DNA of 35,052 nucleotides from Phycisphaerae bacterium (lineage in GTDB: Bacteria > Planctomycetota > Phycisphaerae > UBA1845), in assembly GCA_029260155.1 (NCBI GenBank), contig JAJDDU010000411.1, positions 1 to 35,052 on the forward strand. Direction: 5' to 3'. Numbering within the stretch: the stretch's first letter is position 1; every line of letters begins with the position of its first letter. Positions 14,528 through 34,857 of the stretch are shown here, in pieces. The position numbers were made by a program, and so were the translations under genes. Under the pieces are notes generated by a model. That model made no database searches and was not told the DNA's origin. It worked only from the letters and a program-made list of their open reading frames with translations.

Positions 14528-14532
14528 CGACA

Positions 14533-17280: not shown

Positions 17281-17629
17281 GGGTAGAGCGCCTTTCGAGT
17301 AAGACCCTGCGCCTCAGGGCGAGCCGCGTGATCGACCATGTTACGTCACTCCGAAGTGCCTCGCGTCCAATCCCATTCTACCCCACAGGCATGTTTTCGA
17401 TCCAGAAAAGAATCGCCGATGTGGACCGGATGGACGCCGAGGAAGATGACCGACGCCTGCGCTTTCGCAGCTTTGTTTGCGGAGCACCGGCGTCTCGCGG
17501 TCTGGTGGGGGTTGACGGGGGGGTGTGAGTTTTGACAATGCGGTGTCCTGATCGGGGCTTCGTTTGATGGCGGGGTGCGCGGGCGCGGGCGGCTTCCCTT
17601 GGCATGACGAGGATGGGACTGTTGATGGT

Positions 17630-18565
17630 ATGAAGGTGCTCCTTGCCAATCCGCGATGTTGCTGTGCGGGAGTTGATCGCGCCGTCGAGATCGTCAAACA
17701 GTCGCTAACGCGTTTTGGTGAAACGGTTTACGTTCGCAAGGAGATCGTGCACAACCGATTTGTTGTGGACCGGTTGCGCGAACAGGGGGCGGTGTTCGTC
17801 GAGGAATTGGCGGAAGTTCCGGAAGGGGCGCTGGCGGTGTACAGCGCCCATGGCGTTTCGCCGGCGGTACGCGACGAAGCCGCCGCGCGGGCGCTGCGGG
17901 TGCTGGACGCGACTTGCCCTCTGGTGACGAAGGTTCACGAAGAAGTGCGACGGTTCGTGGGTGCGGGCTATCACATCGTTCTGATCGGCAAGAAGGGCCA
18001 TGAAGAGGTCGAGGGGACCATGGGCTGCGCGCCCGACGACATCACGCTGATTGAAGACGTCGAACAGGCGCGTTCGGTGACGGTGCCCGAGTCCGACAAG
18101 CTGATGGTGCTGACGCAAACGACGCTGGGCGTGGACGATGCGAAGGTGATCGTGGACGCGCTGCGTGAGCGATTCAGGCATCTTGAGCTGCCGCCGGCTG
18201 AGGATATTTGCTATGCCACGCAGAATCGCCAGAACGCGGTGAAGGCCATGTGCGAACGTGGGATTGAGCTGCTGCTCGTGGTGGGGTCCCGTAATTCGAG
18301 CAATGCCGCGCGGCTTGTGGAGGTGGGCGTGGTTCGCGGCGTGCGCGGGCAATTGATCGACACTGCCGATGATCTCGACCCAGCCACGCTTGAAGGTGCT
18401 GAGACGGTGGGCGTCACGGGCGGAGCGAGCACGCCGGACGCGCTGGTGCAGGGCGTGGTGGGACGACTTCGGGAGTTGGGGGCTGAGGACGTGGAAGTCT
18501 GCACGACTGCGGTGGAGAATACGGTGTTTAAGCTGCCGGACATGCTTGCGGTGAAGGGTGATTGA
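17630..18565 (+). CDS. ispH: 4-hydroxy-3-methylbut-2-enyl diphosphate reductase
   Basis: CAGVDRAV, EIVHN, SAHGVSP, DATCPLVTKVH, GHEEVEG, TQTTL, DICYATQNRQ, VGSRNSSN and GVTGGASTP; all three Fe-S cysteines present. Confidence 0.95.
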   Translation: MKVLLANPRCCCAGVDRAVEIVKQSLTRFGETVYVRKEIVHNRFVVDRLREQGAVFVEELAEVPEGALAVYSAHGVSPAVRDEAAARALRVLDATCPLVTKVHEEVRRFVGAGYHIVLIGKKGHEEVEGTMGCAPDDITLIEDVEQARSVTVPESDKLMVLTQTTLGVDDAKVIVDALRERFRHLELPPAEDICYATQNRQNAVKAMCERGIELLLVVGSRNSSNAARLVEVGVVRGVRGQLIDTADDLDPATLEGAETVGVTGGASTPDALVQGVVGRLRELGAEDVEVCTTAVENTVFKLPDMLAVKGD

Positions 18566-18622
18566 ACGGGTCGTGTGTTGGTGCGGACCCACGGGTTGCG
18601 ACCCGTGGGCGTTTGGGTGGAT

Positions 18623-20290
18623 ATGACGACTGAGACTTCGGTTAATTCGGTAAGCGCGGAGCGCACGCGTGTAATCGGATGGTGGGTATCTGACGGATCG
18701 ACACCCGAACGGGGCGAGTCTGCGCTGTCGGCGGCAGTTCAGCGTCTTGGCGAAGCAGTTCAGCTGGCGGATCGGGGCGATGGAGCGGAGGTCGTTCGAG
18801 GTGGGACGTGTGTGTTCGGCGAGCAACCGGCTGATGGGGTGTTGCCGCTGGTCGGGTATGCGCCGCGGCTGGCTCCGGAGTCTCTCGGGGATCCTGCGTT
18901 TCGCGAGACCCACGGATTGCGGTATGCGTATGTCGGCGGGGCGATGGCAAACGGTATCTCGTCGGTGGAGATGGTCGAGGCGTTGGCGCGCGCCGGGATG
19001 CTCGGCTTCTTTGGGTCGGCCGGGATGTCGCTCGATCGCGTCGAGGCCGCCATCGAGCGAATTCAGCAGAGCGTCGGCGATAGGCCTCACGCTTTCAATC
19101 TGATCCATTCGCCGAACGAACCGCGTAGCGAGGCCGAGGTCGTTGATTTGTACTTGCGACGCGGTGTGCGGCTGGTAAGTGCGTCGGCGTATCTCGATTT
19201 GACGCTGCCATTGGTGCGGTATCGGGTTTCGGGGGTTCACCGGGGGCCTGGCGGCGAGATCGTGACGCCGAATCGGGTCATCGCAAAGGTGTCGCGGACG
19301 GAAGTTGCCCGAAAATTCCTGAGTCCGCCGCCTGCGGACATGCTGCAACAACTTGTCAATGAGAATGTTATCACATCTGAGGCGGCGCAGCTGGCGGCAC
19401 GGGTTCCCGTGGCCGGTGATCTGACGGCGGAGGCGGATTCGGGCGGGCACACGGACAACCGGCCTGCCTGTACGTTGATACCGACGATGCTCGCACTTGC
19501 GGACGAGATTCAGGCAGAGCACGGGTACGCGGAGCGGCTGCGGGTGGGAGCGGCCGGGGGCATTTCGACTCCGGAATCGGCGTCTGCGGCGTTTGCGATG
19601 GGGGCTGCGTATGTTCTGACGGGGTCGGTGAATCAGGCGTGCGTGGAATCCGGGACTTCTGTGGCGGTGCGTGAGATGCTGTGCAAGGCGCGGGAGGCGG
19701 ACATCACGATGGCCCCTGCGGCGGATATGTTCGAGATGGGTGTGAAGGTCCAGGTTCTGAAGTGGGGCACAATGTTTGCGGTCCGGGCGAGGAAACTCTA
19801 CGATCTGTACCGGACATGTGCATCGGTTGAGGAAATACCAGAGTCACAGCGTGTGGTTCTGGAGCGGGATCTTTTCCGATGCACCTTGGCGGAGGCATGG
19901 GCGAAGACGCGGGCGTACTTTGCCGTCCGCGACCCTACGCAGATCGCTCGGGCGGAGCGTGACCCGAAGCACAGGATGGCCTTGGTGTTTCGCGCCTATC
20001 TCGGTCAGTCTTCCGAGTGGGCCAACAGCGGGGATGCGTCACGTCGGGCGGACTACCAGATTTGGTGTGGTCCTTCGATGGGCGCGTTCAACGAATGGGT
20101 GCGTGGGACGTTTCTTGAATCGCCCGAGCATCGGGACGTGGTGACGGTCGGGCTCAACCTGCTGGTTGGTGCGGCTGTTGCGACGCGTGCGGCATGGCTT
20201 CGCGCCTACGGTGTGTCCCTGCCGGCGGCGGCTCGTCGTTTTGCGCCGAGACCGCAGGCAGAGTTGGCGCAGCTGTTGGGCAGCGCGTAA
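18623..20290 (+). CDS. pfaD: PfaD-family FMN-dependent trans-enoyl reductase
   Basis: YVGGAMANGISS, FNLIHSPNEP, AKVSRTEVA, TAEADSGGHTDNRP, GAAGGISTP, LTGSVNQ, APAADMFEMGVKVQVLK and DYQIWCGPSMGAFN. Confidence 0.93.
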   Translation: MTTETSVNSVSAERTRVIGWWVSDGSTPERGESALSAAVQRLGEAVQLADRGDGAEVVRGGTCVFGEQPADGVLPLVGYAPRLAPESLGDPAFRETHGLRYAYVGGAMANGISSVEMVEALARAGMLGFFGSAGMSLDRVEAAIERIQQSVGDRPHAFNLIHSPNEPRSEAEVVDLYLRRGVRLVSASAYLDLTLPLVRYRVSGVHRGPGGEIVTPNRVIAKVSRTEVARKFLSPPPADMLQQLVNENVITSEAAQLAARVPVAGDLTAEADSGGHTDNRPACTLIPTMLALADEIQAEHGYAERLRVGAAGGISTPESASAAFAMGAAYVLTGSVNQACVESGTSVAVREMLCKAREADITMAPAADMFEMGVKVQVLKWGTMFAVRARKLYDLYRTCASVEEIPESQRVVLERDLFRCTLAEAWAKTRAYFAVRDPTQIARAERDPKHRMALVFRAYLGQSSEWANSGDASRRADYQIWCGPSMGAFNEWVRGTFLESPEHRDVVTVGLNLLVGAAVATRAAWLRAYGVSLPAAARRFAPRPQAELAQLLGSA

Positions 20291-20302
20291 GGAGATCAGT
20301 AC

Positions 20303-23300
20303 TTGGCGAAGGTCGACGGCAGTGTGACGGCCACGCAAGCACCGATTGCCATCATCGGCATGGGGTGCTTGTTTCCGCATGCGCCTTCGTTGCGCGAATA
20401 CTGGAGACTGATCCGCTGGTCTGAGGACGGCGTGACGGACGTTCCCGACACGCACTGGTCGATTGATGACTACTACGACGCCGAAGCGAACGGGCGAGAC
20501 CTGACGTACTGTCGTCGGGGGGCGTTTCTTTCGCCGGTCGATTTTGATCCGATGGAGTTCGGGATTCCGCCGTCCACTCTGGAGGCGACGGACACCGCTC
20601 AGCTTCTGGGGCTAAAGGTTGCGAAATCTGCTCTTGAAGACGCGGGCTACGGTTCGGATCGGGAGTTCGACAGAGGGCGGACCAGCGTCATTCTAGGGGT
20701 GACGGGGACGCTGGAGCTGGTGATTCCGCTGGGGGCACGGATGGGCCATCCGCACTGGCGGCGGGCGATGCTTGAAGCCGGCGTGCCGGCGGACGTGTCG
20801 GAGTCGATCATCGAGCGGATTGCCGAGCAGTACGTACCGTGGCAGGAGAACTCGTTTCCAGGATTGCTGGGCAACGTGGTGGCCGGTCGGATTGCGAATC
20901 GGTTGAATCTCCGCGGCACGAACTGCGTGGTGGATGCAGCCTGTGCAAGTTCTCTGAGTGCCATTCACCTGTCACTTCTGGAGTTGAGCACCGGGCGAAC
21001 GGATATGGTGGTCAGCGGCGGGGTCGACGCGCTGAACGACATCTTCATGTTCATGTGTTTCAGCAAGACGCAGGCACTCTCGCCCACCGGGGACGCGAGG
21101 CCTTTCTCGAAGGACGCCGACGGAACGGTGATCGGCGAGGGGATGGGGATGATCGTGCTCAAGCGTCTGGCGGACGCGGAGCGCGACGGCGATCGGGTCT
21201 ACGCGGTGATTCGCGGCGTGGGCACGAGCAGCGACGGGAAATCCCAGAGCATTTACGCGCCGCGAAGCGAGGGGCAGGCTGAGGCGCTGCGATCGGCGTA
21301 TCGGATCAGCGGGATCGACCCGAGTACGGTGCAGCTGGTAGAAGCGCACGGGACGGGGACGAAAGTCGGTGACGTGGTCGAGTTCGACGCACTGAAGACG
21401 GTTTATCGCGAGTCGCGCGCCGAGGGCAAGTGGTGCGGCGTTGGCTCGGTGAAGTCTCAGATCGGGCATACCAAGGCTGCGTCCGGAGTCGCAGGGATCA
21501 TCAAGACGGCGCTGTCACTTCACCACAAGGTGCTGCCCGCAATGATCAAGGTTGGGGAAGCGAATCCGAATCTAGATGTCGATGCGAGTCCGTTCTACCT
21601 GAGCACGGAGACCAGGCCTTGGGTCGGCAAGCGCCCCGCGACGCGCCGTTCGAGCGTGAGTTCGTTCGGTTTCGGCGGGAGCAACTTCCACGCCGTTCTT
21701 GAAGAGTATGGCGATTGCAAGAGTGAGGTGTCCTGGGACGGGACGGTCACGATCATCGCGTTTTCGGCGGATACGAAAGACGGACTCACAGAGCGGCTGA
21801 GCGAGTGGCGCGCGTTGGTCGGCGAAAAGCCGAAGAATGCGGAGATAGCGTTTCGGGCGCGTGAATCGCGTCGCGGATTTCGCGCAGCAGACGAATACCG
21901 TCTGTTGGTCGTGTGCGAGTCGGGCGACGACCTTGTTAAACTGCTTTCCGGAGCGGCGGACCGACTTCGCTCGACGGACGAGGGAACCGCTTCGTGGAAC
22001 CTGCCGAGTGTCTTTTTCGGTGGTCCGCAGGCGCGTGGGAAGATCGCGTTTCTGTTCCCAGGTCAAGCCAGTCAGTACGTGGGAATGGGGCGCGACTTGG
22101 CGTGCATGTTCCCCGAAGCGCAAGACGCCGTCGCGCAGGCGGACGGCGAGAGCGGGCTGTGCGAGCGGATCTATCCGCATCCGGTTTTCGATAAGGGCGT
22201 ACGTGCGGAACAGCAGGCGAGATTGACGCACACGGAGGTTGCTCAGCCCGCGATCGGAGCGGTGAGCCTGGCGTGCTTGCGTGTTCTGGAGCGGTTCGGA
22301 GTGCGTGCGGATTCGGTGGCCGGCCACAGTTACGGTGAGCTTGTCGCGCTTCGGGCGGCGGGGCGCATCGACGATGCCACGTTGCGACACCTTTCGAGCG
22401 TGCGCGGGCGGTTGATGGCCGAGGGCAGCAGCGAGCCGGGCACAATGTTGGCGGTTCGCGCGCCGCTTAACGATATTGACGCGATGCTGACCGAGGAAGC
22501 ATCGGACGCGGTCCTAGCGCATCGCAACGGACCGAAGCAGGGTATTTTGTCGGGCAGTGTTGCGGCCATCGAGGCAGCCGATGCTGCCAGTGCATCGCGC
22601 GGGTGGCAGACGACGCGGTTGGAAGTGTCGGCTGCGTTTCACAGCCGGTTGATGAGCGCGGCGCGAGATCGATTCCGCACGGCGCTCGATGAGGCGTCCA
22701 TGTCCGAAGGTTCCATCCCCGTGATCGCGAATCGCACAGCCGAGGCGTATCCGGAGTCGCCGGACAGCGTTCGGGATATGCTGGCGGACCAACTCGTCTG
22801 CCCGGTGGATTTCGTGCGGTTGATTGAGAACATGCGGTCCAGCGGCGTTCGGCTGTTTGTCGAAGTCGGTCCGCGAAATGTGCTAAGCGGCTTGGTCCGA
22901 TCGATTCTGGGTGACGGATCCCAGGAGGCGGTGTCAATCGATGCCTCGTGCGGCCGCGCATCGGGTGTCACAGACTTTGCACGCGTGCTGGCGCGACTGG
23001 GCGCGATGGGGCATGCGGTGGATCTCGCAGCCTGGGAGCCCGACGTGGCGGAGCCGCGGCATCCAGCCATGGCGGTGCCGCTCATCGGTGCGAACTATCG
23101 GCCCCCTAAGAAGAAAACGTGCGTCGAGCCGAATCGGTCGTGTAAGGCGATATCGGCTAGTAACAACGGAAAAAACTACGTGAGTACGACGGTCGAAAAC
23201 AACGGCAAGAAGACGGCACCGCATGCTATGCGCGCGACGCAACCCATGGCGGCACCAACGCAAACGCCTGCGGTCGCACCCGGTGTGATGCAGGTCGTCC

Positions 23301-26300
23301 AGGAAGGCCTGCGGGCAATGCAGGCGTTGCAGCAGCAGACAGCCGAGGCGCACCAGCGGTTCCTGCAGGGGCAAGAGCTTGCCCAGCAGACGTTCCAGAA
23401 GGTCTTGGAGCACCAGCAGCGTCTCGTGGAGCATAGCCTGGGCATGCCGGTGAGCGCGCCGGAGAACCTGCCGCCCATCGCGCAAATGCCACGGTATGAC
23501 ACTCCTGTCCCGGCCCCCGCGGCCGTGCAAGCCCCCATCGCTGCTGCGGCGACCAGCGGCGACAACGGCGAGCACCGCACACTCGAAACCGCGCCGAAAG
23601 CGGAAGTGAGCGCGGTGGTGGCTGTGAGCGAATCTGTAGAAACTGTGTCGGCAGCGCAGCCTTCGGGATCGACGGAGCTGGAGACGACGCTTCTTGAGGT
23701 GGTCGCGGAATTGACGGGGTATCCGATCGAAATGCTCGATCCGGACATGGACCTTGAGGCCGACCTGGGAATCGACTCGATCAAGCGTGTTGAGATTCTC
23801 GCTTCGGTGCAGACGCGGCTGCCGGGCTTGGAAGCTGTTAATTCGTCGTACATGGGCAGCCTGCGGACACTTCGCAACATCATTGATTACATGGCCAGCC
23901 CCGAAGGCGAAACGAAAACGGATTCGTCACCCGCGCCGGTCGTCGAGGTCGTGGCCGACAACACGCCGTCCACAAGCGTCGATCGTCGCGTACTGCGTGC
24001 GGTCGATCTTCCCGCCATTGGGAAAGGTGACGGCGTTAGGATAGCCCCGGGTCGCGAGGTTTGGGTGCTTGAAGACGCCAACGGACTCGCCGAGGCGATC
24101 AGTGACAACCTTATGGCACTTGGGACGTTGTCGCGGGTGGTGACGAGCGATGCCGAGGTGGGCCACAACGGTGATGCGGCCGTTGGCGGCTTGATTATCG
24201 TGGCGTCCCCCGGCGGCATTTGGGACGAGAATTCGGAAAAGGCGTTGAAAGACGCTTTCAGCCTGACGCAGCGCGTGGGCACGCTTCTTCGCGATGCCGC
24301 GAATGAGGGCGGATCGCTGTTTGCGACGGTGTCGCGGATGGACGGTGCGTTCGGGCTTGTCGGCGGAGAATTCGATCCGGTGCAGGGCGGCTTGGCCGGT
24401 CTGGCAAAGACTGTCTCGCACGAGTGGGCCGGCGTTCGCACGAAGGCACTGGATGTGTCCGCCGGGTGGACCGATCACGCGAAGGCGGCTGATGCCGTCG
24501 TACGTGAGCTGTCGGTTGATGGCCCGATCGAGGTCGGGCTGGACTCTCGCGCGCGTCGCGGGTTGGCGTTGGTCTCGGAACCTGTCAGCGATGCTGAATG
24601 GCGGCCGGAAGCGGGTCAGGCGATCGTGATCTCCGGTGGCGCTCGCGGCGTGACAGCCGAGGTTGCCCACGCGCTCGCCATGCACAACAACCCGATTTTG
24701 GTGCTGCTGGGTCGATCGCCTTCGCCGGAAGATGAGCCGGCGTGGCTGAAAGACGTTTCGGAAGAAGCGGAGATCAAGCGTGCGATCATGGCGCACGGGT
24801 TTGACGCGGCTGCGAAACCGACGCCCGTTCAGTTGGAAGAGGCGTATGGCCGATGCGTAGCGGATCGCGAGATTCGTGCGACGGTTGCTCGACTTGAGCT
24901 TGCGGGCGCTAAGGTGATCTACCGTTCGGTGGATGTGCGTGATGCTGCGGCGGTGGCTGAGGTGATCGCGAAAGCGAGGAAGATCGCCGGTCCGATTGGC
25001 TCGCTCATTCACGGAGCGGGTGTGATTGAAGACCGTTGGATCGCGGACAAGAAAGCCGCACAGTTCGAGCGCGTGTTTGACACCAAGGTGGCTGGCCTGC
25101 GGAATCTGCTCGACGCGATTGGTGACGACAATCTGAAGTCTCTGGTGTTGTTCTCTTCGGTGAGCGGTCGTTTCGGGCGGCAGGGGCAGGTCGACTACGC
25201 GATGGCCAATGAGGTATTGAACAAGGTCGCGCACGCCCAAGCCCGATTGCGGCCTGACTGCCGGGTGGTTTCGATCAACTGGGGACCGTGGGAAGGGGGC
25301 ATGGTCACACCGGGTCTTAGGAAGGAATTTGCGCGGATCGGCGTGGGGCTGGTACCGCTGAAGGAGGGAGCTGAGAGCCTTGTTGCAGAGTTGTCGCAGG
25401 TTGGCGGCGACGTCGAGGTCATGATCGGTTGCGAACTCCCTTCGTCTGAGCCCATGTCGCAACCGGCCGCTACGGAACTATCGCCCGCGTTCAAGCGCCT
25501 GCTCGATATCGACCGTCATCCGTTTCTTCGATCGCATGTGATCGGGGGGCATCCGGTTCTTCCGGTGGCGGTGATTCTGGAGTGGCTTGGTCACGGTGCG
25601 TTGCATGACAACCCGGGGCTGCTGCTGCATGGGTTCGAGGACTTCCGGGTACTCAAGGGTGTGGTGCTGACCAACGGGCCGGCTGATCTGCGTGTGACGG
25701 CTTCGAAGGCGAGACGAAACGGATCGCTGTTTGAGGTTGACGTTGAACTGCGTGGCCACGCGTCGAACGGCCGTGAGACGCCGCACGCGCGTGCCCGGGC
25801 CATCCTCGCTACGGCGTTGCCGGCACCGCCGACATTCAGCCCGCCCGAGGAAATCGGCTGTCGCACATACGCCCGCGGTGTCGAGGGTGCGTACAATGAA
25901 GTGCTGTTCCACGGTCCCGGTTTTCAAGGGATTGAACGGGTTGCAGGTTACTCAGCCGAGGGGATGGTCGCGTACGTGCGTTCGGCGGCGGGGCCGTCGG
26001 ATTGGATGAGCGAGCCCGTGCGTAGCGCGTGGCTTGGCGATCCACTGGTGGTGGATGCCGGGTTGCAGATCGGAATCTTGTGGTGTCACGAGGAGTTGGG
26101 CGCGGTTTCGCTTCCGAGTTCCGGCGCGGGATACTATCAGTATCGGCCGTCTTTCCCGGAGATTGGGGTCAGCGCGGTCTTGGAAATCCGTTCGGCGAAT
26201 GAGACACAGATGACGGCCGACGTCACGTTTCTTGACGAAGCCGGCATCGTGGTCGCACAGATGAGAGGCTTCTCGTGGACGGTGGACGCGTCTTTGCAGG

Positions 26301-26344
26301 CTGCGTTCGGGCGTGAAGCGGTGGCCGGCGCTCAGTCGTCATAG
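20303..26344 (+). CDS. pfaA: PfaA-like iterative PKS: KS-MAT-ACP(x1)-KR-DH
   Basis: TTG after AAGGAG. KS DAACASS/EAHGTGT/IGHTK; MAT GHSYG/AFHS; one ACP (LEADLGIDSIKRVEIL, ~23678-23893); KR GGARGVT/FSSVSGRFGRQGQVDYAMAN; DH FLRSHVIGGHPVLP...DAGLQ. Confidence 0.92.
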   Translation: MAKVDGSVTATQAPIAIIGMGCLFPHAPSLREYWRLIRWSEDGVTDVPDTHWSIDDYYDAEANGRDLTYCRRGAFLSPVDFDPMEFGIPPSTLEATDTAQLLGLKVAKSALEDAGYGSDREFDRGRTSVILGVTGTLELVIPLGARMGHPHWRRAMLEAGVPADVSESIIERIAEQYVPWQENSFPGLLGNVVAGRIANRLNLRGTNCVVDAACASSLSAIHLSLLELSTGRTDMVVSGGVDALNDIFMFMCFSKTQALSPTGDARPFSKDADGTVIGEGMGMIVLKRLADAERDGDRVYAVIRGVGTSSDGKSQSIYAPRSEGQAEALRSAYRISGIDPSTVQLVEAHGTGTKVGDVVEFDALKTVYRESRAEGKWCGVGSVKSQIGHTKAASGVAGIIKTALSLHHKVLPAMIKVGEANPNLDVDASPFYLSTETRPWVGKRPATRRSSVSSFGFGGSNFHAVLEEYGDCKSEVSWDGTVTIIAFSADTKDGLTERLSEWRALVGEKPKNAEIAFRARESRRGFRAADEYRLLVVCESGDDLVKLLSGAADRLRSTDEGTASWNLPSVFFGGPQARGKIAFLFPGQASQYVGMGRDLACMFPEAQDAVAQADGESGLCERIYPHPVFDKGVRAEQQARLTHTEVAQPAIGAVSLACLRVLERFGVRADSVAGHSYGELVALRAAGRIDDATLRHLSSVRGRLMAEGSSEPGTMLAVRAPLNDIDAMLTEEASDAVLAHRNGPKQGILSGSVAAIEAADAASASRGWQTTRLEVSAAFHSRLMSAARDRFRTALDEASMSEGSIPVIANRTAEAYPESPDSVRDMLADQLVCPVDFVRLIENMRSSGVRLFVEVGPRNVLSGLVRSILGDGSQEAVSIDASCGRASGVTDFARVLARLGAMGHAVDLAAWEPDVAEPRHPAMAVPLIGANYRPPKKKTCVEPNRSCKAISASNNGKNYVSTTVENNGKKTAPHAMRATQPMAAPTQTPAVAPGVMQVVQEGLRAMQALQQQTAEAHQRFLQGQELAQQTFQKVLEHQQRLVEHSLGMPVSAPENLPPIAQMPRYDTPVPAPAAVQAPIAAAATSGDNGEHRTLETAPKAEVSAVVAVSESVETVSAAQPSGSTELETTLLEVVAELTGYPIEMLDPDMDLEADLGIDSIKRVEILASVQTRLPGLEAVNSSYMGSLRTLRNIIDYMASPEGETKTDSSPAPVVEVVADNTPSTSVDRRVLRAVDLPAIGKGDGVRIAPGREVWVLEDANGLAEAISDNLMALGTLSRVVTSDAEVGHNGDAAVGGLIIVASPGGIWDENSEKALKDAFSLTQRVGTLLRDAANEGGSLFATVSRMDGAFGLVGGEFDPVQGGLAGLAKTVSHEWAGVRTKALDVSAGWTDHAKAADAVVRELSVDGPIEVGLDSRARRGLALVSEPVSDAEWRPEAGQAIVISGGARGVTAEVAHALAMHNNPILVLLGRSPSPEDEPAWLKDVSEEAEIKRAIMAHGFDAAAKPTPVQLEEAYGRCVADREIRATVARLELAGAKVIYRSVDVRDAAAVAEVIAKARKIAGPIGSLIHGAGVIEDRWIADKKAAQFERVFDTKVAGLRNLLDAIGDDNLKSLVLFSSVSGRFGRQGQVDYAMANEVLNKVAHAQARLRPDCRVVSINWGPWEGGMVTPGLRKEFARIGVGLVPLKEGAESLVAELSQVGGDVEVMIGCELPSSEPMSQPAATELSPAFKRLLDIDRHPFLRSHVIGGHPVLPVAVILEWLGHGALHDNPGLLLHGFEDFRVLKGVVLTNGPADLRVTASKARRNGSLFEVDVELRGHASNGRETPHARARAILATALPAPPTFSPPEEIGCRTYARGVEGAYNEVLFHGPGFQGIERVAGYSAEGMVAYVRSAAGPSDWMSEPVRSAWLGDPLVVDAGLQIGILWCHEELGAVSLPSSGAGYYQYRPSFPEIGVSAVLEIRSANETQMTADVTFLDEAGIVVAQMRGFSWTVDASLQAAFGREAVAGAQSS

Positions 26345-26354
26345 GTGAAGATCG

Positions 26355-29300
26355 ATGAGCGGGCCATCACCGATTGCAGTGGTCGGGCTTGGCGGTGTTT
26401 TCCCCGGATCGCCCGACCTCGATACATTTCAACGGAACATTCTCAACAAGACAGACTCTTGCAAAGAGGTTCCGCCTGATCGGTGGATCCTCGACCCGCG
26501 TGATGCGTTTCGAGCGACCCTGTCGCCGGACCATGTTTATTCGACGCGCGGTTGCTTCGTGGAAGACTTCGCGTTTGATCCAGCCGGGTTGCAACTTGAT
26601 GCGGAGATCCTCCGCGGACTTGACCCCTTGTACACATTGGTGCTGCATGCTGGACGTGAAGCGTTTGTGGATGCGGTGACGAACGGTCTCGATCTGCGTC
26701 GCACGGGCGTGGTGCTGGCGGCTATCGCGCTGCCGACGGACGGAGCGTCGGCCATCACACGCGAGGTGCTGGGGGAGAAGTTCGAGCGTGCGCTGCTGGG
26801 CACGTCCAGTGTCAAGAACCTGTCATCACCGCTCAACGCGCGGGTGACGTCTCTTCCTGCGAGCTTGCTGGCCCGCGCGCTGGGCTTGCGTGGCGGCAGT
26901 TGCACGTTGGACGCAGCCTGTGCATCGAGCTTGTACGCCTTGAAGCTTGCATGCGAGGAGCTGCGGGCCCATCGTGCGGACGCGATGCTCGCCGGTGGGG
27001 TTTCGCGGCCTGAGTGCTTGTACACGCAGATGGGGTTCAGCCAACTGCGGGCGTTGTCGCCTTCGGGCGTGTGTCGACCTTTCGACGCTGGCGCGAACGG
27101 GCTCGTCGTGGGCGAGGGTGCGGGCATCGTCATGCTGAAACGGCTGGAGGACGCCGTTGATGCGGGTGATACGATTTACGGCGTGATTCGCGAGATCGGG
27201 CTATCGAACGACGTCGCCGGGAGTCTCCTGGCCGCGGATTCCGAGGGCCAGGTACGGGCAATGCGCGAGGCCTACCGCGCTTGCGGATGGTCGCCTGAAG
27301 ATGTGGACCTCATAGAGTGTCATGGTACTGGCACTCCGTTGGGCGACGCCGTGGAGCTCAGGAGTCTGCGGACGCTGTGGGGCGATGCACCGTTTCGCCC
27401 CGGTCAGTGTGCGATCGGGTCTATTAAATCGAACATCGGCCATCTGCTGACGGCTGCGGGGGCTGCGGGGCTAATCAAGGTCTTGTTGGCCCTGAGGGCG
27501 CGAACGCTTCCGCCGTCGATCCACTTCGAGAAGGCTCCGCGCAGCAGCGAACTGGAATCAAGCCCATTCAGAGTGCAGTGCGAGGCTGCACCGTGGGATC
27601 GACGGGACGCTGAGACGCCTCGGCGGGCGGGGGTGAGCGCTTTTGGGTTCGGTGGGATCAACGGGCATCTGCTGATCGAAGAATGGGAGCCGTCGCGGCG
27701 CAAGACGGCGGGTGAAACCCGCCCCGCGCGTGGGCGCCTTGAATCTGTTCCTGTTGCGATCGTTGGGATGGACGCACGGTTCGGTTCGACGGAGTCGTTG
27801 CGGGCATTTCAGGAGTTGGTGCTGAGCGGCGGATGCGCGAACCATGCGTCCGTTGATTCGGTGTCGGTGGGGCGGGGTGAGTTTCGATTGCCGCCCAATG
27901 AGATCCCAGAAGTGCTCCCGCAGCAGTTGTTGATGTTGAAATCGGTTGCGCGGGCACTGCAAGACACGGGGTTCACGAGGGGCGATCCCGTCGAACGCAC
28001 GGGCGTGGTCGTGGGCATGGGTCTCGATCTGAACACGACGAACTTCCATCACCGCTGGTCGCTGTTGCCGCAAGCGCGGGCGTGGGCACGGGCGATGGGG
28101 TTGGAGCTTACCGAGGATCAACTTGACGAATGGGTGGGTGATCTTCGCGAGCAGTCCGGTCCGGCGCTGACGCCCGGTCGGGTGGTCGGAGCACTGGGCA
28201 ACATCATCGCGAGTCGCATCGCGCGCGAGTTTGCGTTTGGAGGTCCGAGTTTTGCGATCTCCGCGGAGGAAGCGTCGGGCGTTCGGGCGCTGGAGGTTGG
28301 TGTTCGATCGCTACAACGGGGGGAGATGGACGCTGTGGTCGTCGGGGCGGTTGATCTGCCGGGCGATGAGCGGAATCTCTTGGCTACTGGCGCCTTGCGG
28401 GCGTTCTCGGCTCGCGGAGAGGTGCGGCCATTCGACGCGTCGGCGGACGGAATCGTTGTGGGTGAAGGCGTCGCGAGCATTGTGCTGAAGCGTCTGGAAG
28501 ACGCTGTGGCGGCCGGTGATCGGGTCTACTGCGTTGTGCGGGGCATCGGTGTGGCTAGCGGGAGCAACGCGTCGTATGCCGATGGCGAGACGTATCGACT
28601 AGCGCTTGAGCGTGCCTATGAGGATGCTTGCGTGCCGGGCGCGTCAGTCACTTACGTGGAAACGCATGGCAGCGGGGATGGGCGTGAGGACGACGTTGAG
28701 GCGGCTGCGCTGGCGGATTTCTTCGCGGATGGTCCGATCGCGATTGGCTCGGTCAAGTCGACCATCGGGAACACCGGGGCACTGGCGGGGCTTGCTTCGG
28801 TCGTAAAGACTGCCCTCTGTTTGCACAACGAGATGATCCCCCCGCTGGTCGGGCACGGGTTCGCTTCGCCGGAGAATCCCCTTAGGGGTGAGAAGTTCCA
28901 CACGCCGGACGCAGCGCAAGCGTGGCTGCACGACGGGGCCGACGGTCCGCGTCGTGCGGGTGTCAGCGTCATGACGCTGGACGGCATGTGCGCGCACGTC
29001 GTGCTCGAAGGCGCTGCGTGCGAGAACACGGGGCGGCGTCAGCCGTGCGGCGATCGCCCCAAGGGCGTTTTCGGTGTGCGCGGCGCCGATGTGAAAGCGC
29101 TACGCGCCGGGCTCGCGTCGTTGAAGCAGATGACCGCAGGGTCGGGGGACGGTATCGAACGATTGGCTCGACTGTGGTATGGGCGCGATACCGCGAGCGA
29201 AGGCAGCGATACTCTAGCACTCGCCATCGTCGCAGGCGGTTGTGATGAGCTCGCAATCGCGATCACGGATGCGGCGGATGCGCTGCGAGAGCGACCGACG

Positions 29301-32300
29301 GACCCCATCGCCGGCGAGGGTGGGGTGTTCTATTCGCCCAAGCCACTGGGCGGGCGAGGCGAGGTTGCGTTCGTGTTTCCGGGGTCGGGAAATCACTACG
29401 TTGGGATGGGCAGGGGACTCAGCGAGCATTGGCCGGAGGTGCTGCGTTTCCTCGATGGTGAGACGCGATATCTCAAGAGTCAGATGATGCCACACCTGTA
29501 CGCGCCGTGGCGGTTCGGCTGGGACGAAGGGTGGCGGCGCGAAGCGTCGGCGGCGGTTGAGGCTGACCCCGCCGCGATGATCCTGGGGCAGGTGGCGCAC
29601 GGTATCGCAATGAGCGACCTAATGCGCCGACTCGGGATCGAGCCATCGGTGGCCATCGGTTACAGCCTGGGCGAATCGACGGCGCTGTTCGCGTTGCGCG
29701 CCTGGCGGGATCGCGACGAGATGTTCGAGCGCATTCAGACCTCGCCGCTGTTTCGATCAGAGCTCGTCGGCCGATGCGACGCGGCGCGTCGGGCGTGGTC
29801 GCTCTCAGACGATGAGGCTGTGGATTGGCGCGCCGTCGTGGTGAATCGCGGAGCCGACCGCGTGCAGCACGTCGTTTCCCGGATCGATCGCGTCTACCTG
29901 CTGATCGTCAACGCGCCGGATGAATGCGTGATCGGCGGGCAGCGGGCAGCCGTCGATGCGGTCGTCGCCAAACTCGGGTGTGACGCGGTCGAGCTGACAG
30001 GGGCATCGACGGTACATTGTGACGTAGCCCGCGTCGTGGAGGACGAGTATCGCAGTTTGCATCTATTGGTTACGACGCCTCCAGACGGGCTTCGCTTTTA
30101 CAGCGGCGCTCAGGCGACGAGTTTCGCGGTCGATCGGGAGAGCGCAGCCGACGCGATCGTGGCGCAGGCGATAGCCGGTTTCGATTTCCCAGCCACCGTC
30201 GAGCGGGCGTATGCCGACGGCGTTCGCGTGTTCCTCGAGCCGGGTCCGGGCGGATCGTGTGCACGGATGATCGGGAAGATCCTGGCGGGTAGGCCGCACG
30301 TGGCCCGGTCGGCGTGCGTGGCGGGTGAGGATGACCTAACGACGATCCTCGACGTAATGGCGTGCATGTATGCCGAGCGTGTGCTTTGTGACCTCGGTCC
30401 ACTGTACGGCGAGGAAACGCTGGTCCTTGGTCACCGATCGGCTGACGTTTCGCACGGGGGTGGTGATGAGATTGTCGTTTCCGTGCGTCGTCCCGAGCCG
30501 CAGCCGACACTGCCGGCAGTTGTTACGCCCGAGCCCAAACCTGTTGCGACGGAGCCCGTGCAGGAAAGCGCAGAGGTGGAGTTGATGTCGGCCATCGCGC
30601 AAGCCAATACTGCGACGGCGGACGCGCATCAACAGTTTCTGCGACAGAGTCAGCTCGCGCTTGCGGACATGGGCGAGGCGATCGCGCTGCAGGCGCAGCT
30701 GGTCGACGGGCTGAATATCGAGCTCGGAGCGATTGTCGATCGCATTGCGACGGTGGCGGTGCCCGCGTTCAATCGTGACATGTGCTTGGAATTCGCGGTC
30801 GGATCGGTGGCCCGGGTGTTGGGCCCGGAATTCGAGGCGGCTGACACTTATCCCGTTCGCGTTCGTCTGCCGGATGAGCCGCTCATGCTGGTCGATCGGA
30901 TCGTGAGCATCGACGCGGTCAAGGGCAGCATGACAAACGGCAAGATCGTGACCGAACACGATGTGCTGCCCGGTGCGTGGTACCTCGATGGCGATCGTGC
31001 GCCAGTCGCCATCACTGTTGAAGCTGGGCAAGCCGACCTGTTTCTCTGTGCGTATCTCGGGATTGATCTGGCCGTCAAGGGGACGCGCGCGTATCGGCTG
31101 CTCGATGCGACTGTTACATTCCATCGCGGGTTGCCTCAGCCGGGTGATATCGTGCGGTACGACATCCACATAGATCGCTTCGTCAAACAGGGTGAGACGT
31201 ATCTGTTCTTCTTCCGATTCGAGGGGACGATCGATGGTGCGCCGATGCTGACGATGGCTGACGGATGCGCGGGGTTTTTTACTGAGACCGAGATTGCCGA
31301 GTCCGGAGGGATCGTACAGACCGCGGACGAGCGCGCACCGGCCGCGGGAAAGCGGGCGGACGATTGGCGCGACCTTGCGCCCATGGGAGTCGAATCGTAC
31401 GACGAAGCCAAGGTGGATGCGCTGCGCGGAGGTGATCTAGCTGGGTGTTTTGGTGCGGCGTTTGGCTCGTTGGGGTTGGTTGATCCGATACGCATACCCG
31501 GCGGTCCCATGCGCCTGATCGATCGCGTAGTCGAACTCGATCCCAATGGCGGGCGGTTCGGGCTGGGTGTGATCCGCGCTGAGGCCGACATTCGTGGAGA
31601 TGAGTGGTTTCTGACCTGCCACTTTACGGACGACATGGTCATGCCGGGAACACTTATGCATGAGTGCTGCACGCATACCCTGCGCATCTTTCTGATGCGT
31701 ATGGGGTGGGTGACGGAACGCAGCGGCGTGTGCTACGAGCCGATTCCCGGCGTGCCGAGCAAACTCAGTTGCCGTGGGCCGGTGACACCGAGCACCAAGG
31801 TGGTGACCTACGAAGTGCAGATTAAGGAACTGGGTTACAATCCAGAGCCGTATGTGATCGCCGACGCCCTGATGTACGCCGACGGGGAGAAAATCGTGCA
31901 GTTCACGGACATGTCGCTCAAGATGACTGGGGCGACACGGAAGGGAATCGAAGCGTTATGGGACGCTGGAAAGTGCCATGGTGTGACACTTGTCGGTGAT
32001 GCTCCGGTTGCGACCGACGTTGCACCGGCTGTGTTTGACGACGATCGTATTCTGGCGTTCGCCCTGGGCAAGCCGTCGGAGGCGTTCGGCGCGCCGTATC
32101 GCGCGTTCGACAATGATCGCCGCATCGCGCGGCTGCCGGGGCCACCGTACAAGTTCCTGAATCGGATTACGCGCGTCGACGCTGAGGCGTGGAAGCTCGC
32201 GCCGGGCGGGTGGATCGAGGCGCAGTACGACGTGCCGCCAGACGCATGGTATTTCGCGGCCAACCGGCAGCGGTCGATGTCGTTCGGAGTCCTCTTGGAA

Positions 32301-33161
32301 GTCGCGTTGCAGCCTTGCGGCTGGCTGGCGGCGTATCTGGGATCGGCGTTGCGCGGCGACACAGATCTGTCATTCCGCAACCTGGGTGGGTCAGCCATCC
32401 TGCATCGCGAGGTCTTTCCCGAGGCGGGGACTCTGACGACGCGCGTGCGGATAACCAAAGTGTCTGAAGCAGGCGGGATGATCGTCGAAGCGTTCGACAT
32501 GCAGATCTGGCAGGGCGGGGAAATCGTCTACGATGGCGAAACGACGTTCGGGTTCTTCACGGCCGACGCGCTTGCTCAGCAGATCGGCGTTCGCGATGCG
32601 GCCCAACGCCTGTACGAACCAGCCGATGACGAAGTCCGTCGTGGGAAGCGGTTTGCCCTAGAGTCGGTCGCCCCGTTAACGCCGGATGCGTGTGGGGCGC
32701 CGGATTGCAGTGGCATGGCGATGCCGGCGACGGCGTTTCGGATGATCGATGAAATCGACCTGTTTGTGGCGGACGGCGGGCACCACGGGCGTGGGTTCAT
32801 TCGCGGCGTGAAGCGCGTCGACCCTGCGGAATGGTTCTTCACGGCGCACTTCTATCAGGATCCGGTGTGTCCGGGTTCGCTGGGCTTGGAATCGTTCTTG
32901 CAATTACTCAAGGTCGTTGCCAACGATCGATGGGGCACCGAATACGCAACAACCCACCGCTTCGAGCCCATTGTCGTCGGGACGAGACATGAGTGGATCT
33001 ACCGCGGGCAGATCATCCGTACCAACAAACGCATCGAGGTCGAGGCCGTCATCACCCGCATCGACGACGCCCCGCAGCCAACGATCGTTGCCGACGGATT
33101 CCTCAAGGTGGACGGCATCCCGATCTACGAAATGAGAGACTTCGGCATCCGCCTCTGCTGA
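26355..33161 (+). CDS. Fused PfaB/PfaC-like protein: KS-CLF-AT followed by four FabA-like hot-dog domains (two apparently catalytic, two pseudo)
   Basis: KS DAACASS/ECHGTGT/IGHLLTAAG; CLF lacking the catalytic Cys (SAEEASG); AT FPGSG/GYSLGE/TVHC; FabA-like WFLTCHFTDDMVMPGTLM and WFFTAHFYQDPVCPGSLGLE. Confidence 0.9.
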   Translation: MSGPSPIAVVGLGGVFPGSPDLDTFQRNILNKTDSCKEVPPDRWILDPRDAFRATLSPDHVYSTRGCFVEDFAFDPAGLQLDAEILRGLDPLYTLVLHAGREAFVDAVTNGLDLRRTGVVLAAIALPTDGASAITREVLGEKFERALLGTSSVKNLSSPLNARVTSLPASLLARALGLRGGSCTLDAACASSLYALKLACEELRAHRADAMLAGGVSRPECLYTQMGFSQLRALSPSGVCRPFDAGANGLVVGEGAGIVMLKRLEDAVDAGDTIYGVIREIGLSNDVAGSLLAADSEGQVRAMREAYRACGWSPEDVDLIECHGTGTPLGDAVELRSLRTLWGDAPFRPGQCAIGSIKSNIGHLLTAAGAAGLIKVLLALRARTLPPSIHFEKAPRSSELESSPFRVQCEAAPWDRRDAETPRRAGVSAFGFGGINGHLLIEEWEPSRRKTAGETRPARGRLESVPVAIVGMDARFGSTESLRAFQELVLSGGCANHASVDSVSVGRGEFRLPPNEIPEVLPQQLLMLKSVARALQDTGFTRGDPVERTGVVVGMGLDLNTTNFHHRWSLLPQARAWARAMGLELTEDQLDEWVGDLREQSGPALTPGRVVGALGNIIASRIAREFAFGGPSFAISAEEASGVRALEVGVRSLQRGEMDAVVVGAVDLPGDERNLLATGALRAFSARGEVRPFDASADGIVVGEGVASIVLKRLEDAVAAGDRVYCVVRGIGVASGSNASYADGETYRLALERAYEDACVPGASVTYVETHGSGDGREDDVEAAALADFFADGPIAIGSVKSTIGNTGALAGLASVVKTALCLHNEMIPPLVGHGFASPENPLRGEKFHTPDAAQAWLHDGADGPRRAGVSVMTLDGMCAHVVLEGAACENTGRRQPCGDRPKGVFGVRGADVKALRAGLASLKQMTAGSGDGIERLARLWYGRDTASEGSDTLALAIVAGGCDELAIAITDAADALRERPTDPIAGEGGVFYSPKPLGGRGEVAFVFPGSGNHYVGMGRGLSEHWPEVLRFLDGETRYLKSQMMPHLYAPWRFGWDEGWRREASAAVEADPAAMILGQVAHGIAMSDLMRRLGIEPSVAIGYSLGESTALFALRAWRDRDEMFERIQTSPLFRSELVGRCDAARRAWSLSDDEAVDWRAVVVNRGADRVQHVVSRIDRVYLLIVNAPDECVIGGQRAAVDAVVAKLGCDAVELTGASTVHCDVARVVEDEYRSLHLLVTTPPDGLRFYSGAQATSFAVDRESAADAIVAQAIAGFDFPATVERAYADGVRVFLEPGPGGSCARMIGKILAGRPHVARSACVAGEDDLTTILDVMACMYAERVLCDLGPLYGEETLVLGHRSADVSHGGGDEIVVSVRRPEPQPTLPAVVTPEPKPVATEPVQESAEVELMSAIAQANTATADAHQQFLRQSQLALADMGEAIALQAQLVDGLNIELGAIVDRIATVAVPAFNRDMCLEFAVGSVARVLGPEFEAADTYPVRVRLPDEPLMLVDRIVSIDAVKGSMTNGKIVTEHDVLPGAWYLDGDRAPVAITVEAGQADLFLCAYLGIDLAVKGTRAYRLLDATVTFHRGLPQPGDIVRYDIHIDRFVKQGETYLFFFRFEGTIDGAPMLTMADGCAGFFTETEIAESGGIVQTADERAPAAGKRADDWRDLAPMGVESYDEAKVDALRGGDLAGCFGAAFGSLGLVDPIRIPGGPMRLIDRVVELDPNGGRFGLGVIRAEADIRGDEWFLTCHFTDDMVMPGTLMHECCTHTLRIFLMRMGWVTERSGVCYEPIPGVPSKLSCRGPVTPSTKVVTYEVQIKELGYNPEPYVIADALMYADGEKIVQFTDMSLKMTGATRKGIEALWDAGKCHGVTLVGDAPVATDVAPAVFDDDRILAFALGKPSEAFGAPYRAFDNDRRIARLPGPPYKFLNRITRVDAEAWKLAPGGWIEAQYDVPPDAWYFAANRQRSMSFGVLLEVALQPCGWLAAYLGSALRGDTDLSFRNLGGSAILHREVFPEAGTLTTRVRITKVSEAGGMIVEAFDMQIWQGGEIVYDGETTFGFFTADALAQQIGVRDAAQRLYEPADDEVRRGKRFALESVAPLTPDACGAPDCSGMAMPATAFRMIDEIDLFVADGGHHGRGFIRGVKRVDPAEWFFTAHFYQDPVCPGSLGLESFLQLLKVVANDRWGTEYATTHRFEPIVVGTRHEWIYRGQIIRTNKRIEVEAVITRIDDAPQPTIVADGFLKVDGIPIYEMRDFGIRLC

Positions 33162-33171
33162 GTGCTCCTGG

Positions 33172-33747
33172 TCACTGAGGCCCGTCGAACGAACTGACGA
33201 CCGACCGGACCAGCTCGACGTCGGCGGCATTGAGGGGCACTTGTGCGTTCAGCAATCCCACGCAAAACGCGTCGCGATAGTCGAGTCCCACGGCGATGAC
33301 CATGCCCCGCTCGTCGTCGCGGAGCAGAACGCCCTTGAGTGGGCCGAAAGGAGCGGCTTCGAGTTGCGCAGTAGGTCGTCGTCCTCGAATGATGTCGAGG
33401 GCTCTGAAGCCCCATTCCAGTCTTCTGTCCGACGCGATCTTCGCGGCAGACTCGTTGTCTGGGTTCGGGATCGCCCTGACCACCAAGCTCCGCGGCCTGC
33501 GTCCGTGCGCAGGTTCGACAAATTCCACGGCGTATCCGGTCGTGTCTCGGTTGAGGCGATCCCACCCTGCCGGGGGACGAAACCCCATGCTCCAGCCGTC
33601 GGGCGTGATGCGCGGCCCGAGTGAAATCGTCCTCCGGCTCCCTACGGTGAGAATGGCCAGCGCCGTTACGACAGTCAACATCACCAGGGCGCACGATGTT
33701 GGCGAGCCGAGAAGCTTGCGGAACTGGAATCGGTTTTCTGTGTCCAT
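33172..33747 (-). CDS. Hypothetical protein with an N-terminal membrane anchor
   Basis: ORF fills the gap between convergent neighbours; hydrophobic segment CALVMLTVVTALAILTV followed by a soluble domain (FRPPAGW...). Start uncertain (33747 or 33756). Confidence 0.6.
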   Translation of the reverse strand: MDTENRFQFRKLLGSPTSCALVMLTVVTALAILTVGSRRTISLGPRITPDGWSMGFRPPAGWDRLNRDTTGYAVEFVEPAHGRRPRSLVVRAIPNPDNESAAKIASDRRLEWGFRALDIIRGRRPTAQLEAAPFGPLKGVLLRDDERGMVIAVGLDYRDAFCVGLLNAQVPLNAADVELVRSVVSSFDGPQ

Positions 33748-33918
33748 AGGCCACACGGATGCTAGCGTGGGGGCGCGGTCGCGACAACGGTTGACCGTTG
33801 GGGCTGCTGTCCTTACATTGCAATCCGCCGTCGGCCGCGATCCTGGTGTACGACTGTCAAGGAACGAGCGTGACGAGCAGTCCTCCCACGCAGGACGCGG
33901 GTCGGCCGTCGGAATGCG

Positions 33919-34857
33919 TTGGCTCGTTCACGGGTTTTCTTGATGATCGGCGATTTCAAGCCATTCTTTATGCGGGGGTTGGGCGCGCTGGTGCCCACGT
34001 TGGCGACGTTCGCCATCCTCGTGTGGGCCTACCGCTTCATCGACGAGAACTTCGCCAGGTACATCACGCGGGGCATGGTCGCGGTTTACGCCCTCAAGGG
34101 CGAGCCTCATCACTGGCTGGGGATCGACGAGGAAGATGCCCTCGTCTTGGGCGACCCGGTGAACGAGTGGGACGAGAAGACAGGCCGCCGCCTCACCGCC
34201 CAGTACAAGACGATGATCGCGCAGCCCCGGCTGGGAGAATCGGCGACAAAGGACGAGGAGACGGCTGCGGGGATCGTTCTGAAGGACGCACGGTCGGCGG
34301 CCATGTGGGAGTTGGCCACGCGAAAGTGGCGATTCTTCAACGCGATCGGCTTCCTGATCGCGATCCTGCTGATTTACTTCATGGGATATTTCCTGGCCAG
34401 CTTGATCGGGCGAACGACGTGGCGCGTGGTCGAGCGGGTGATTCGGCGTATCCCGCTGATCGGGACCATCTATCCGAATATCAAACAGGTGACGGATTTC
34501 TTCATCTCGGATCGCAAAGTTGAGTTTTCAAGCGTGGTCGCGGTACAGTATCCCCGCAAGGGGGTCTGGTCGCTCGGTTTGGTGACCGGGGTCCCGTTGC
34601 GACAGATTGGCGCAGGCGACCCGCGTGCGCTCATCACCGTGTTCATTCCGAGTTCGCCGACGCCGGTGACCGGGTATACTATTACCGTCGCACGTGACGA
34701 CGCGCTCGAGTTGCCTATGACAATTGACGATGCGCTGAGGTACACGATTAGTGCGGGGATGATCAAACCGGACGGCCCGCCGGAGATTTCCGGCGATGCT
34801 GCCGAACTGCTGATAGCGGGCAAAACTCGCCGCGACACCGTGGAGGGTGCGCGGTGA
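33919..34857 (+). CDS. DUF502 family membrane protein
   Basis: FFMRGLGALVP..T, RIPLIGTIYPNIKQV, VQYPRKGVWSLGLVTG and VFIPSSPTPVTGY. Start may be ATG 33943. Confidence 0.85.
   Translation: MARSRVFLMIGDFKPFFMRGLGALVPTLATFAILVWAYRFIDENFARYITRGMVAVYALKGEPHHWLGIDEEDALVLGDPVNEWDEKTGRRLTAQYKTMIAQPRLGESATKDEETAAGIVLKDARSAAMWELATRKWRFFNAIGFLIAILLIYFMGYFLASLIGRTTWRVVERVIRRIPLIGTIYPNIKQVTDFFISDRKVEFSSVVAVQYPRKGVWSLGLVTGVPLRQIGAGDPRALITVFIPSSPTPVTGYTITVARDDALELPMTIDDALRYTISAGMIKPDGPPEISGDAAELLIAGKTRRDTVEGAR

Follow-up and report, generated by a model that had tools for sequence, protein, structure and literature searches.

A Pfa-type synthase cluster of a Phycisphaerae bacterium that likely supplies acyl chains to an OleABCD polyene-hydrocarbon pathway

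Shulse and Allen define 20 types of pfa-like gene clusters, among which Type I, described from Geobacter, Pelobacter, Desulfuromonas, and Gemmata, carries a pfaBC fusion and is proposed to supply olefin precursors; the ole genes, in their words, "are often linked ... but can also reside elsewhere" (PMC3098273). In G. bemidjiensis, pfaD, A, B, and C, oleA, B, C, and D, and pfaE lie in tandem, and the organism makes C31:9 (Yoshida et al., PMC4882568). According to Allemann et al., C31:9 depends on pfa in Shewanella, and in both Shewanella and Photobacterium OleA links the two pathways by condensing what is predicted to be a 16:4n-3 chain, which it probably receives directly from the acyl carrier protein (ACP) of Pfa (PMC6463001). 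In planctomycetes, n-C31:9 is reported as 8.9% of Gemmata obscuriglobus lipids (PMC3327967), is listed also for Zavarzinella, Telmatocola, and Lacipirellula, and was "detected in many other planctomycetes" (PMC3327967, PMC6995999). Here we analyze a cluster of three genes, pfaD, pfaA, and pfaBC, in contig JAJDDU010000411.1 (35,052 nucleotides, hereafter the window), which is contig C348 of a Phycisphaerae metagenome-assembled genome (MAG; 594 contigs, 87% complete, 1.3% contamination). The cluster is likely the acyl-chain-supplying half of a two-part pfa/ole polyene-hydrocarbon pathway with a C31:9-type product. We read it in this way because oleABCD are present in the same genome, because relatives show pfa-ole synteny and pfa-ole co-occurrence, and because the literature pairs the two systems; to this observed basis the gene content and the intact catalytic motifs of the cluster are added.

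The three genes are intact, lie on the + strand, and are separated by spacers of 12 bp (20291-20302) between pfaD and pfaA and 10 bp (26345-26354) between pfaA and pfaBC. Domains are called from Pfam profile matches at E ≤ 0.001, and families from NCBIfam/TIGRFAM bit scores relative to the model cut-offs. For the weaker domains of PfaBC and for the flanks of the PfaA ACP, Pfam is searched with separate protein segments. The genes and their domains are as follows (KS, ketosynthase; MAT, malonyl-CoA:ACP transacylase; KR, ketoreductase; PS-DH, dehydratase of the polyketide synthase (PKS) type; CLF, the chain-length factor; AT, an acyltransferase; DH, a dehydratase; DH', pseudo-dehydratase; ER, enoyl reductase).

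18623..20290, + strand: pfaD, stand-alone enoyl reductase (FMN/NMO-type ER), 555 aa (TIGR02814 pfaD_fam, PF03060, PF21607)
20303..26344, + strand: pfaA-like gene, 2013 aa, KS-MAT-ACP(x1)-KR-PS-DH (TIGR02813, Pfam)
20339..21550, + strand: PfaA KS, aa 13-416, with C214, H349, and H389 (PF00109, PF02801, motifs)
22049..22900, + strand: PfaA MAT, aa 583-866, GHSYG with S676 (PF00698 106.7 bits, motif)
23687..23890, + strand: PfaA ACP, single, aa 1129-1196, LGIDSI with S1159 (PF00550 in one stretch, motif)
24623..25294, + strand: PfaA KR, aa 1441-1664, Y1632 (PF08659 126.7 bits, motif)
25481..26281, + strand: PfaA PS-DH, aa 1727-1993, H1745 in HxxxGxxxxP (PF21089, PF14765, motif)
26355..33161, + strand: pfaB/pfaC fusion (pfaBC), 2268 aa, KS-CLF-AT-DH'-DH-DH'-DH (Pfam, NCBIfam, segment searches)
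26367..27530, + strand: PfaBC KS, aa 5-392, with C189, H323, and H363 (PF00109, PF02801, motifs)
27879..28850, + strand: PfaBC CLF, KS-like, aa 509-832 (PF00109 and PF02801 on segment)
29601..30239, + strand: PfaB-like AT, aa 1083-1295, GYSLG with S1104 (PF00698 37 bits on segment, motif)
30867..31241, + strand: pseudo-dehydratase DH' 1, aa 1505-1629 (PF07977 29.6 bits, weak)
31497..31904, + strand: FabA-like dehydratase/isomerase 1, aa 1715-1850, H1756 (PF07977 118.8 bits, motif)
32133..32537, + strand: pseudo-dehydratase DH' 2, aa 1927-2061 (PF07977 35.7 bits, weak)
32724..33134, + strand: FabA-like dehydratase/isomerase 2, aa 2124-2260, H2165 (PF07977 114.4 bits, motif)

PfaD scores 634.1 bits against TIGR02814 (cut-off 449.25) and belongs to the PfaD family; its open frame runs from 18575, with the candidate start ATG at 18623 in the same frame. 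PfaA scores 1380.1 bits against TIGR02813 (cut-off 1010.1), has its Pfam domains in the order of PfaA-type multidomain proteins, and aligns from residue 1 with its homologue in a Phycisphaerae locus, L015. Several tandem ACPs are typical of Pfa synthases, but the window PfaA has one, and its relatives carry 1-6. A motif scan finds no second DS[LIVM] carrier motif between MAT and KR, and the flanks of the ACP (aa 870-1130 and 1200-1440) give no Pfam match in the segment search. Tandem ACPs are not a requirement in the scheme of Shulse and Allen (PMC3098273).

In PfaBC, a KS-CLF didomain is followed by two strong and two weak FabA-like stretches, as in Pfa-type synthases. The second KS-like domain is 36% identical to the first (BLASTP, E 4e-40), with the active Cys replaced by Glu and the last His by Asn, indicating that it is a true CLF. 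The AT region (aa 990-1350) scores 100.9 bits against TIGR02816 pfaB_fam, under the cut-off of 144. The protein terminates 8 residues past the last DH. Neither the acylglycerolphosphate acyltransferase family (AGPAT, PF01553) nor any thioesterase family matches PfaBC or the other cluster proteins at E ≤ 0.001. Thus the domain order, the gaps of 12 and 10 bp, the intact catalytic motifs, and the lack of AGPAT and thioesterase given in a preliminary description of this DNA are borne out by the family and segment searches, the open reading frame (ORF) coordinates, and the motifs located in the translations of PfaA and PfaBC. The same description noted neither a phosphopantetheinyl transferase (PPTase) nor ole genes in the window. 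Pfam searches of the window and six-frame family searches agree, and genome-wide searches place both elsewhere.

The cluster matches the AGPAT-less, fused-pfaBC kind, Type I; the assignment is by gene layout and ole partner. As in Type I, pfaD comes first and pfaA second, and the functions of pfaB and pfaC are combined in one KS-CLF-AT-DH protein lacking AGPAT (PMC3098273), here a single 2268-aa frame. Type I clusters are partnered with oleABCD (PMC4882568), and this genome has oleABCD on another contig, C413. Homologues in Gemmataceae and Isosphaera MAGs are full-length, 45-48% identical (best segment), and share the pfa-ole synteny. The window cluster differs from Type I in that its ole genes are on a different contig, the genome has no pfaE, PfaA has one ACP, and the Phycisphaerae PfaBC proteins form a group of their own.

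Two other systems are less similar. The marine gammaproteobacterial pfaABCDE and oleABCD of Shewanella and Photobacterium have the same catalytic domain set, and the pfa-ole link is proven there (PMC6463001). However, the marine system is described with the order pfaA-B-C-D, PfaB and PfaC as separate proteins, 4-6 ACPs, a PfaE of the Sfp type, and PfaT as an accessory thioesterase, and with eicosapentaenoic acid (EPA) or docosahexaenoic acid (DHA) as the main product in most strains (PMC3098273, PMC6463001). The myxobacterial pfa1-pfa2-pfa3 of Aetherobacter, Minicystis, and Sorangium shares the order ER; KS-MAT-ACP-KR-DH; KS-CLF-AT-DH'/DH, but Pfa3 has a C-terminal AGPAT that loads the polyunsaturated fatty acid (PUFA) onto lysophosphatidate, where the window PfaBC stops after the last DH (PMC8436480). 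In addition, myxobacterial pfaE is placed elsewhere in the genome (PMC8436480), and the window cluster is partnered with ole. The preliminary description had compared the cluster with the myxobacterial one. Its account of Pfa3 as KS-CLF-AT-DH/DH'-AGPAT agrees with PMC8436480, but we reject this system as the best match, since AGPAT is absent here and ole linkage is present.

When the whole MAG is searched in six frames for protein families, contig C413 (locus L014) proves to carry a FabH-like thiolase and, near it, a 3-beta-HSD-type reductase. The two belong to a consecutive oleA-oleB-oleC-oleD cluster on the minus strand, so all four genes that the preliminary description had proposed to look for are present. 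Positions are those of L014.

14657-15856, - strand: oleA, non-decarboxylative thiolase (NF006720/PRK09258 450.9 bits, cut-off 285)
13720-14646, - strand: oleB, alpha/beta hydrolase, haloalkane-dehalogenase-like (family match)
12056-13873, - strand: oleC, beta-lactone synthetase (PRK09274 716.8 bits, cut-off 478)
11076-12059, - strand: oleD, NAD(P)H reductase (NF042423 389.4 bits, NF042422 383.1 bits)

The top specific models of OleC are the olefin beta-lactone synthetases NF045786 (647.2 bits) and NF045785 (568.2 bits), and those of OleD, NF042423 and NF042422, are 2-alkyl-3-oxoalkanoate reductases; all four scores lie under the cut-offs of these models. The start of oleD overlaps the stop of oleC. 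Contig C413 runs out about 600 bp past oleA.

Relatives of PfaBC were collected by scanning one genome per species, giving 22 loci from several phyla with full-length PfaBC, which aligns over about residues 1-2267 of the query, or partial PfaBC, and their synteny was determined by tblastn with the window proteins and the Ole proteins of contig C413. The nearest loci are in two Phycisphaerae MAGs (73% and 59% identity), consistent with the planctomycete host that had been guessed before the source was known. The others are from Acidobacteriota, Desulfobacterales, a gammaproteobacterium, Elusimicrobiota, Vulcanimicrobiota, Gemmataceae, Isosphaera, and Nitrospinota. Three of the 22 contigs end right after pfaBC and are uninformative. 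In 16 of the 19 informative loci, oleA begins no more than about 200 nt past the pfaBC stop, and 10 of these 16 have complete oleABCD. In one further locus, oleBCD follow at a distance of 3.4 kb, after an unannotated ORF of 1023 aa, and two loci have no ole gene in at least 7 kb. The Phycisphaerae locus L016, with ispH-pfaD-pfaA-pfaBC-oleABCD, has the layout of the window with the ole genes attached; the host genome reads as one in which the ole genes have moved elsewhere.

Some loci show particular arrangements. The 1023-aa ORF (L021:17452-20523, Vulcanimicrobiota MAG) has no Pfam match and lies between pfaBC and oleB, the position of oleA in other loci; L021 gives no OleA match at E ≤ 1e-10. 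In L034 (20859-22517), oleC and oleD are separated by an inserted Tn5-type transposase. At L030:16576-18726, the oleA and oleB matches each come in two pieces, and no oleC or oleD follows. In four Desulfobacterium/Desulfobacteraceae MAGs (L024, L025, L026, and L027), the PfaBC homologues match only to about residue 1869 of the query, and therefore appear to carry one DH'-DH pair, not two. In L026, oleA-oleB are followed by EF-P, Fe-ADH, and a PAS protein instead of oleC and oleD.

Co-occurrence was counted in samples of the host class (151 genomes) and phylum (201 genomes), each including the host genome. Since the two samples have a slight overlap, and since related genomes are not independent of one another, the figures are given as counts, not statistics. 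In the class sample, PfaD is found in 14 genomes and OleA in 18, and every PfaD genome has OleA. In the phylum sample, PfaD is found in 37, OleA in 71, and both in 35; the two genomes with PfaD only are fragmentary, one at 84% completeness and in 1330 contigs, the other at 59%. In the remaining 34 genomes of this sample that carry both, the genes lie within 25 kb of each other in 16, at 34-39 kb in 2, and on different contigs in 16, and two single-contig genomes of the host's order have pfa and ole 217 and 232 kb apart. Linked and unlinked layouts thus both occur among relatives, indicating that the separation in the host genome is normal. With oleABCD in the same genome, ole directly 3' of pfaBC in relatives, PfaD rarely found without OleA, and the Type I form tied to C31:9 in the literature, the earlier label "product unknown" is too cautious.

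Three observations from these samples concern single genomes or families. All 8 genomes of one family of the phylum sample (f23) have an OleA-family gene and no PfaD. In genome G253, PfaD-like ER matches lie within megasynthase-like open frames of 8935 and 10517 aa. In two genomes of the window's own family (G078 and G148), oleA follows the pfa genes on one contig and the best OleD match is on another, and the ole operon seems to be split.

A tree built from 19 PfaBC sequences (LG+G4, SH-aLRT; the midpoint root serves only the drawing) omits L020, L023, L027, and L036, which are three partial loci and one frameshifted. The window and the two Phycisphaerae loci form one group with 100% support, which sits with Vulcanimicrobiota and Desulfobacterales, apart from the Gemmataceae/Isosphaera clade. 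This topology agrees with earlier descriptions of a patchy distribution prone to transfer.

The pathway can be outlined by analogy with the described systems. MAT would load malonyl units onto the single PfaA ACP, and the two KS domains would extend the chain, with CLF setting its length. KR, PS-DH, the two FabA-like dehydratase/isomerases, and the trans-acting ER PfaD would then introduce methylene-interrupted cis double bonds, and the Pfa product would be a polyunsaturated medium-chain acyl thioester, probably 16:4n-3. OleA may take two such chains, probably directly off the ACP, and neither AGPAT nor a releasing thioesterase would then be needed; their absence fits a direct hand-over from ACP to OleA. 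Head-to-head joining by OleA would be followed by reduction by OleD, beta-lactone closure by OleC, and decarboxylation by OleB, giving a C31:9-type polyene hydrocarbon (hentriacontanonaene) predicted to be located in the membrane. The chain length, the hand-over to OleA, and the activation of the ACP by the housekeeping PPTase AcpS are the parts of this outline that we infer.

Several points weigh against this pathway. The ole genes are not adjacent to the pfa cluster in this genome, and the contigs C348 and C413 show no overlap by blastn of the last 2.5 kb of each or by an exact end-overlap test, so the linkage here is only that of the same MAG. OleC and OleD score under the NCBIfam equivalog cut-offs (NF045786, 647 against 900; NF042423, 389 against 580). 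OleA occurs without PfaD in 4 of 151 class and 36 of 201 phylum genomes, indicating that Ole does not need Pfa and that the pairing is one-directional. No Sfp-type PPTase is found, though one is considered necessary for canonical Pfa synthases. The products of Type I clusters are without direct genetic or biochemical proof and are called "largely unknown" in PMC4882568, and a literature search, judged by titles and abstracts, turned up no lipid or C31:9 report for Phycisphaerae. The lipid data of cultured planctomycetes stem from a different family branch, since the Gemmataceae and Isosphaera PfaBC proteins are placed apart in the tree. The 16:4n-3 chain and the C31:9 end product, although probable, are carried over from other organisms.

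The first alternative is that the synthase makes a long-chain PUFA (EPA-, DHA-, or arachidonic acid-like) for membrane phospholipids, and that the ole genes use other substrates. The domain set equals that of proven PUFA synthases, with the TIGR02813 and TIGR02814 scores above the cut-offs, and one synthase is reported to serve both PUFA and hydrocarbon in Shewanella and Photobacterium (PMC6463001). However, there is no AGPAT and no separate PfaB, PfaA has one ACP where high-flux PUFA synthases typically have several, and oleA is joined into the operon in most informative loci, with PfaD nearly always accompanied by OleA. In addition, the fatty-acid tables given for planctomycetes with n-C31:9, strains that are not Phycisphaerae, list no C20-22 PUFA (PMC3327967, PMC6995999). 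We therefore regard PUFA production as unlikely.

Still less probable is another secondary lipid unrelated to Ole, for example very-long-chain (omega-1)-hydroxy fatty acids or the lipid tail of a natural product. Pfa-like clusters of other phyla are described as making the chains of heterocyst glycolipids and phenolic lipids (PMC3098273), lipopeptides are reported to be fed by pfa-type genes (PMC12964715, PMC13291983), and (omega-1)-OH C26-C32 acids are given as characteristic of some planctomycetes (PMC3327967). However, G. obscuriglobus, which is counted among the Type I carriers, is given without (omega-1)-OH acids but with n-C31:9 (PMC3327967). The two FabA-type dehydratase/isomerase pairs indicate cis-polyene chemistry, Pfam finds no nonribosomal peptide synthetase, PKS, or glycosyltransferase neighbours in the window, and the ole synteny and co-occurrence also speak against this reading.

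The third alternative concerns the activation of the carrier. The preliminary description had proposed a genome search for a PPTase, and this search, with PF01648 in six frames, gives a single match in the MAG, which is an AcpS of about 125-140 aa (TIGR00516, 93.9 bits). No Sfp-type pfaE is found: tblastn of the MAG with the pfaE-like protein of L019 gives nothing better than E 0.6. The genome (87% complete) thus lacks, as assembled, the dedicated Sfp-type PPTase of Pfa synthases. The remaining 13 genomes of the class sample with PfaD likewise have exactly one PF01648 match above cut-off each. In all 12 pfa-bearing relatives of the host's order, two of which are single-contig genomes, that match is AcpS (TIGR00516, 87-102.5 bits). 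The missing pfaE is therefore probably not an assembly gap. In the thirteenth genome (G123), which belongs to another order, the PF01648 search gives no AcpS-type match, only a HetI-like Sfp-type PPTase (C12:39279-39605, corresponding to L047:342-1157), which lies in a linked pfa-ole cluster some 4 kb past oleA. This is the only pfaE-like gene in the class sample. Among 14 loci scanned, pfaE is found downstream of ole or pfaBC only in L019, from a gammaproteobacterial MAG.

The sole AcpS and the failed pfaE search could mean that in this lineage the cluster is silent or does not function, with no Sfp-type PPTase to activate the PfaA carrier, but this is very improbable, since all three large genes are intact and lack none of the catalytic motifs, the AcpS-only state is shared by the pfa-bearing relatives of the order, and an open frame of about 14.5 kb is retained across the order, which argues for use. 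Even together, the three alternatives are improbable, though less so than any one of them alone. As for how the synthase would be activated, we lean slightly towards the view that this Phycisphaerae order runs a Pfa synthase without an Sfp-type PPTase and that the housekeeping AcpS activates the single PfaA ACP.

The pfa cluster is a secondary system, since the genome has a separate type II fatty-acid synthase, with FabH and FabF on contig C58 (FabF 578 bits, cut-off 494). Upstream of the cluster lies one annotated neighbour.

17564..18565, + strand: ispH, HMBDP reductase (PF02401 297.6 bits; TIGR00216 299 bits, cut-off 188)

The ispH-pfaD adjacency is common to the window and the two Phycisphaerae loci L015 and L016, as determined by tblastn; ispH is a neighbour of the synthase, not a member. 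The sole promoter-like site in 17200-18800, from a consensus scan of low weight, is at 17512-17539, upstream of ispH. The 3' side holds a DUF502 protein and ORFs that match no family. A search for a downstream accessory gene, for example a thioesterase, gives no Pfam or NCBIfam match for the ORFs in 33125-34523, no evidence ties these ORFs to the cluster, and family searches of the window ORFs reveal no apparent accessory lipid gene. One of the downstream ORFs (33172-33756, minus strand, 194 aa) is convergent with pfaBC and stops 10 bp past the end of that gene. It has a gene-like codon-position GC pattern and no Pfam or NCBIfam match, and weakly related sequences (31% identity) occur in 2 of 10 family genomes. 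Other genes of the window, at 1932-4187, 4951-8181, and 12596-15555, have no visible link to the cluster; they encode a DUF1573/Ig-like protein of 751 aa that carries two thioredoxin/redoxin domains, a pyruvate phosphate dikinase, and a 2-oxoacid:ferredoxin oxidoreductase composed of two subunits.

Where no product had been assigned, our analysis predicts a specific one, a polyene hydrocarbon of the C31:9 type in whose synthesis oleABCD take part, and adds uncultured Phycisphaerae to the bacteria with a pfa-ole pairing. Since this pairing was already published in 2010-2011, most of what is gained is better annotation. More unexpected, and the main source of interest, is an order with intact pfa genes and only AcpS, joined in this genome by a single ACP. 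If true, activation by AcpS alone would break the rule, drawn from marine bacteria, that Pfa synthases cannot do without a dedicated pfaE, and the cluster would be a minimal three-gene, one-ACP synthase expressible in hosts that use AcpS alone. If confirmed at the bench, the combination of AcpS and a single ACP would be relevant to the enzymology of carrier-protein activation and to the engineering of small PUFA and olefin pathways.

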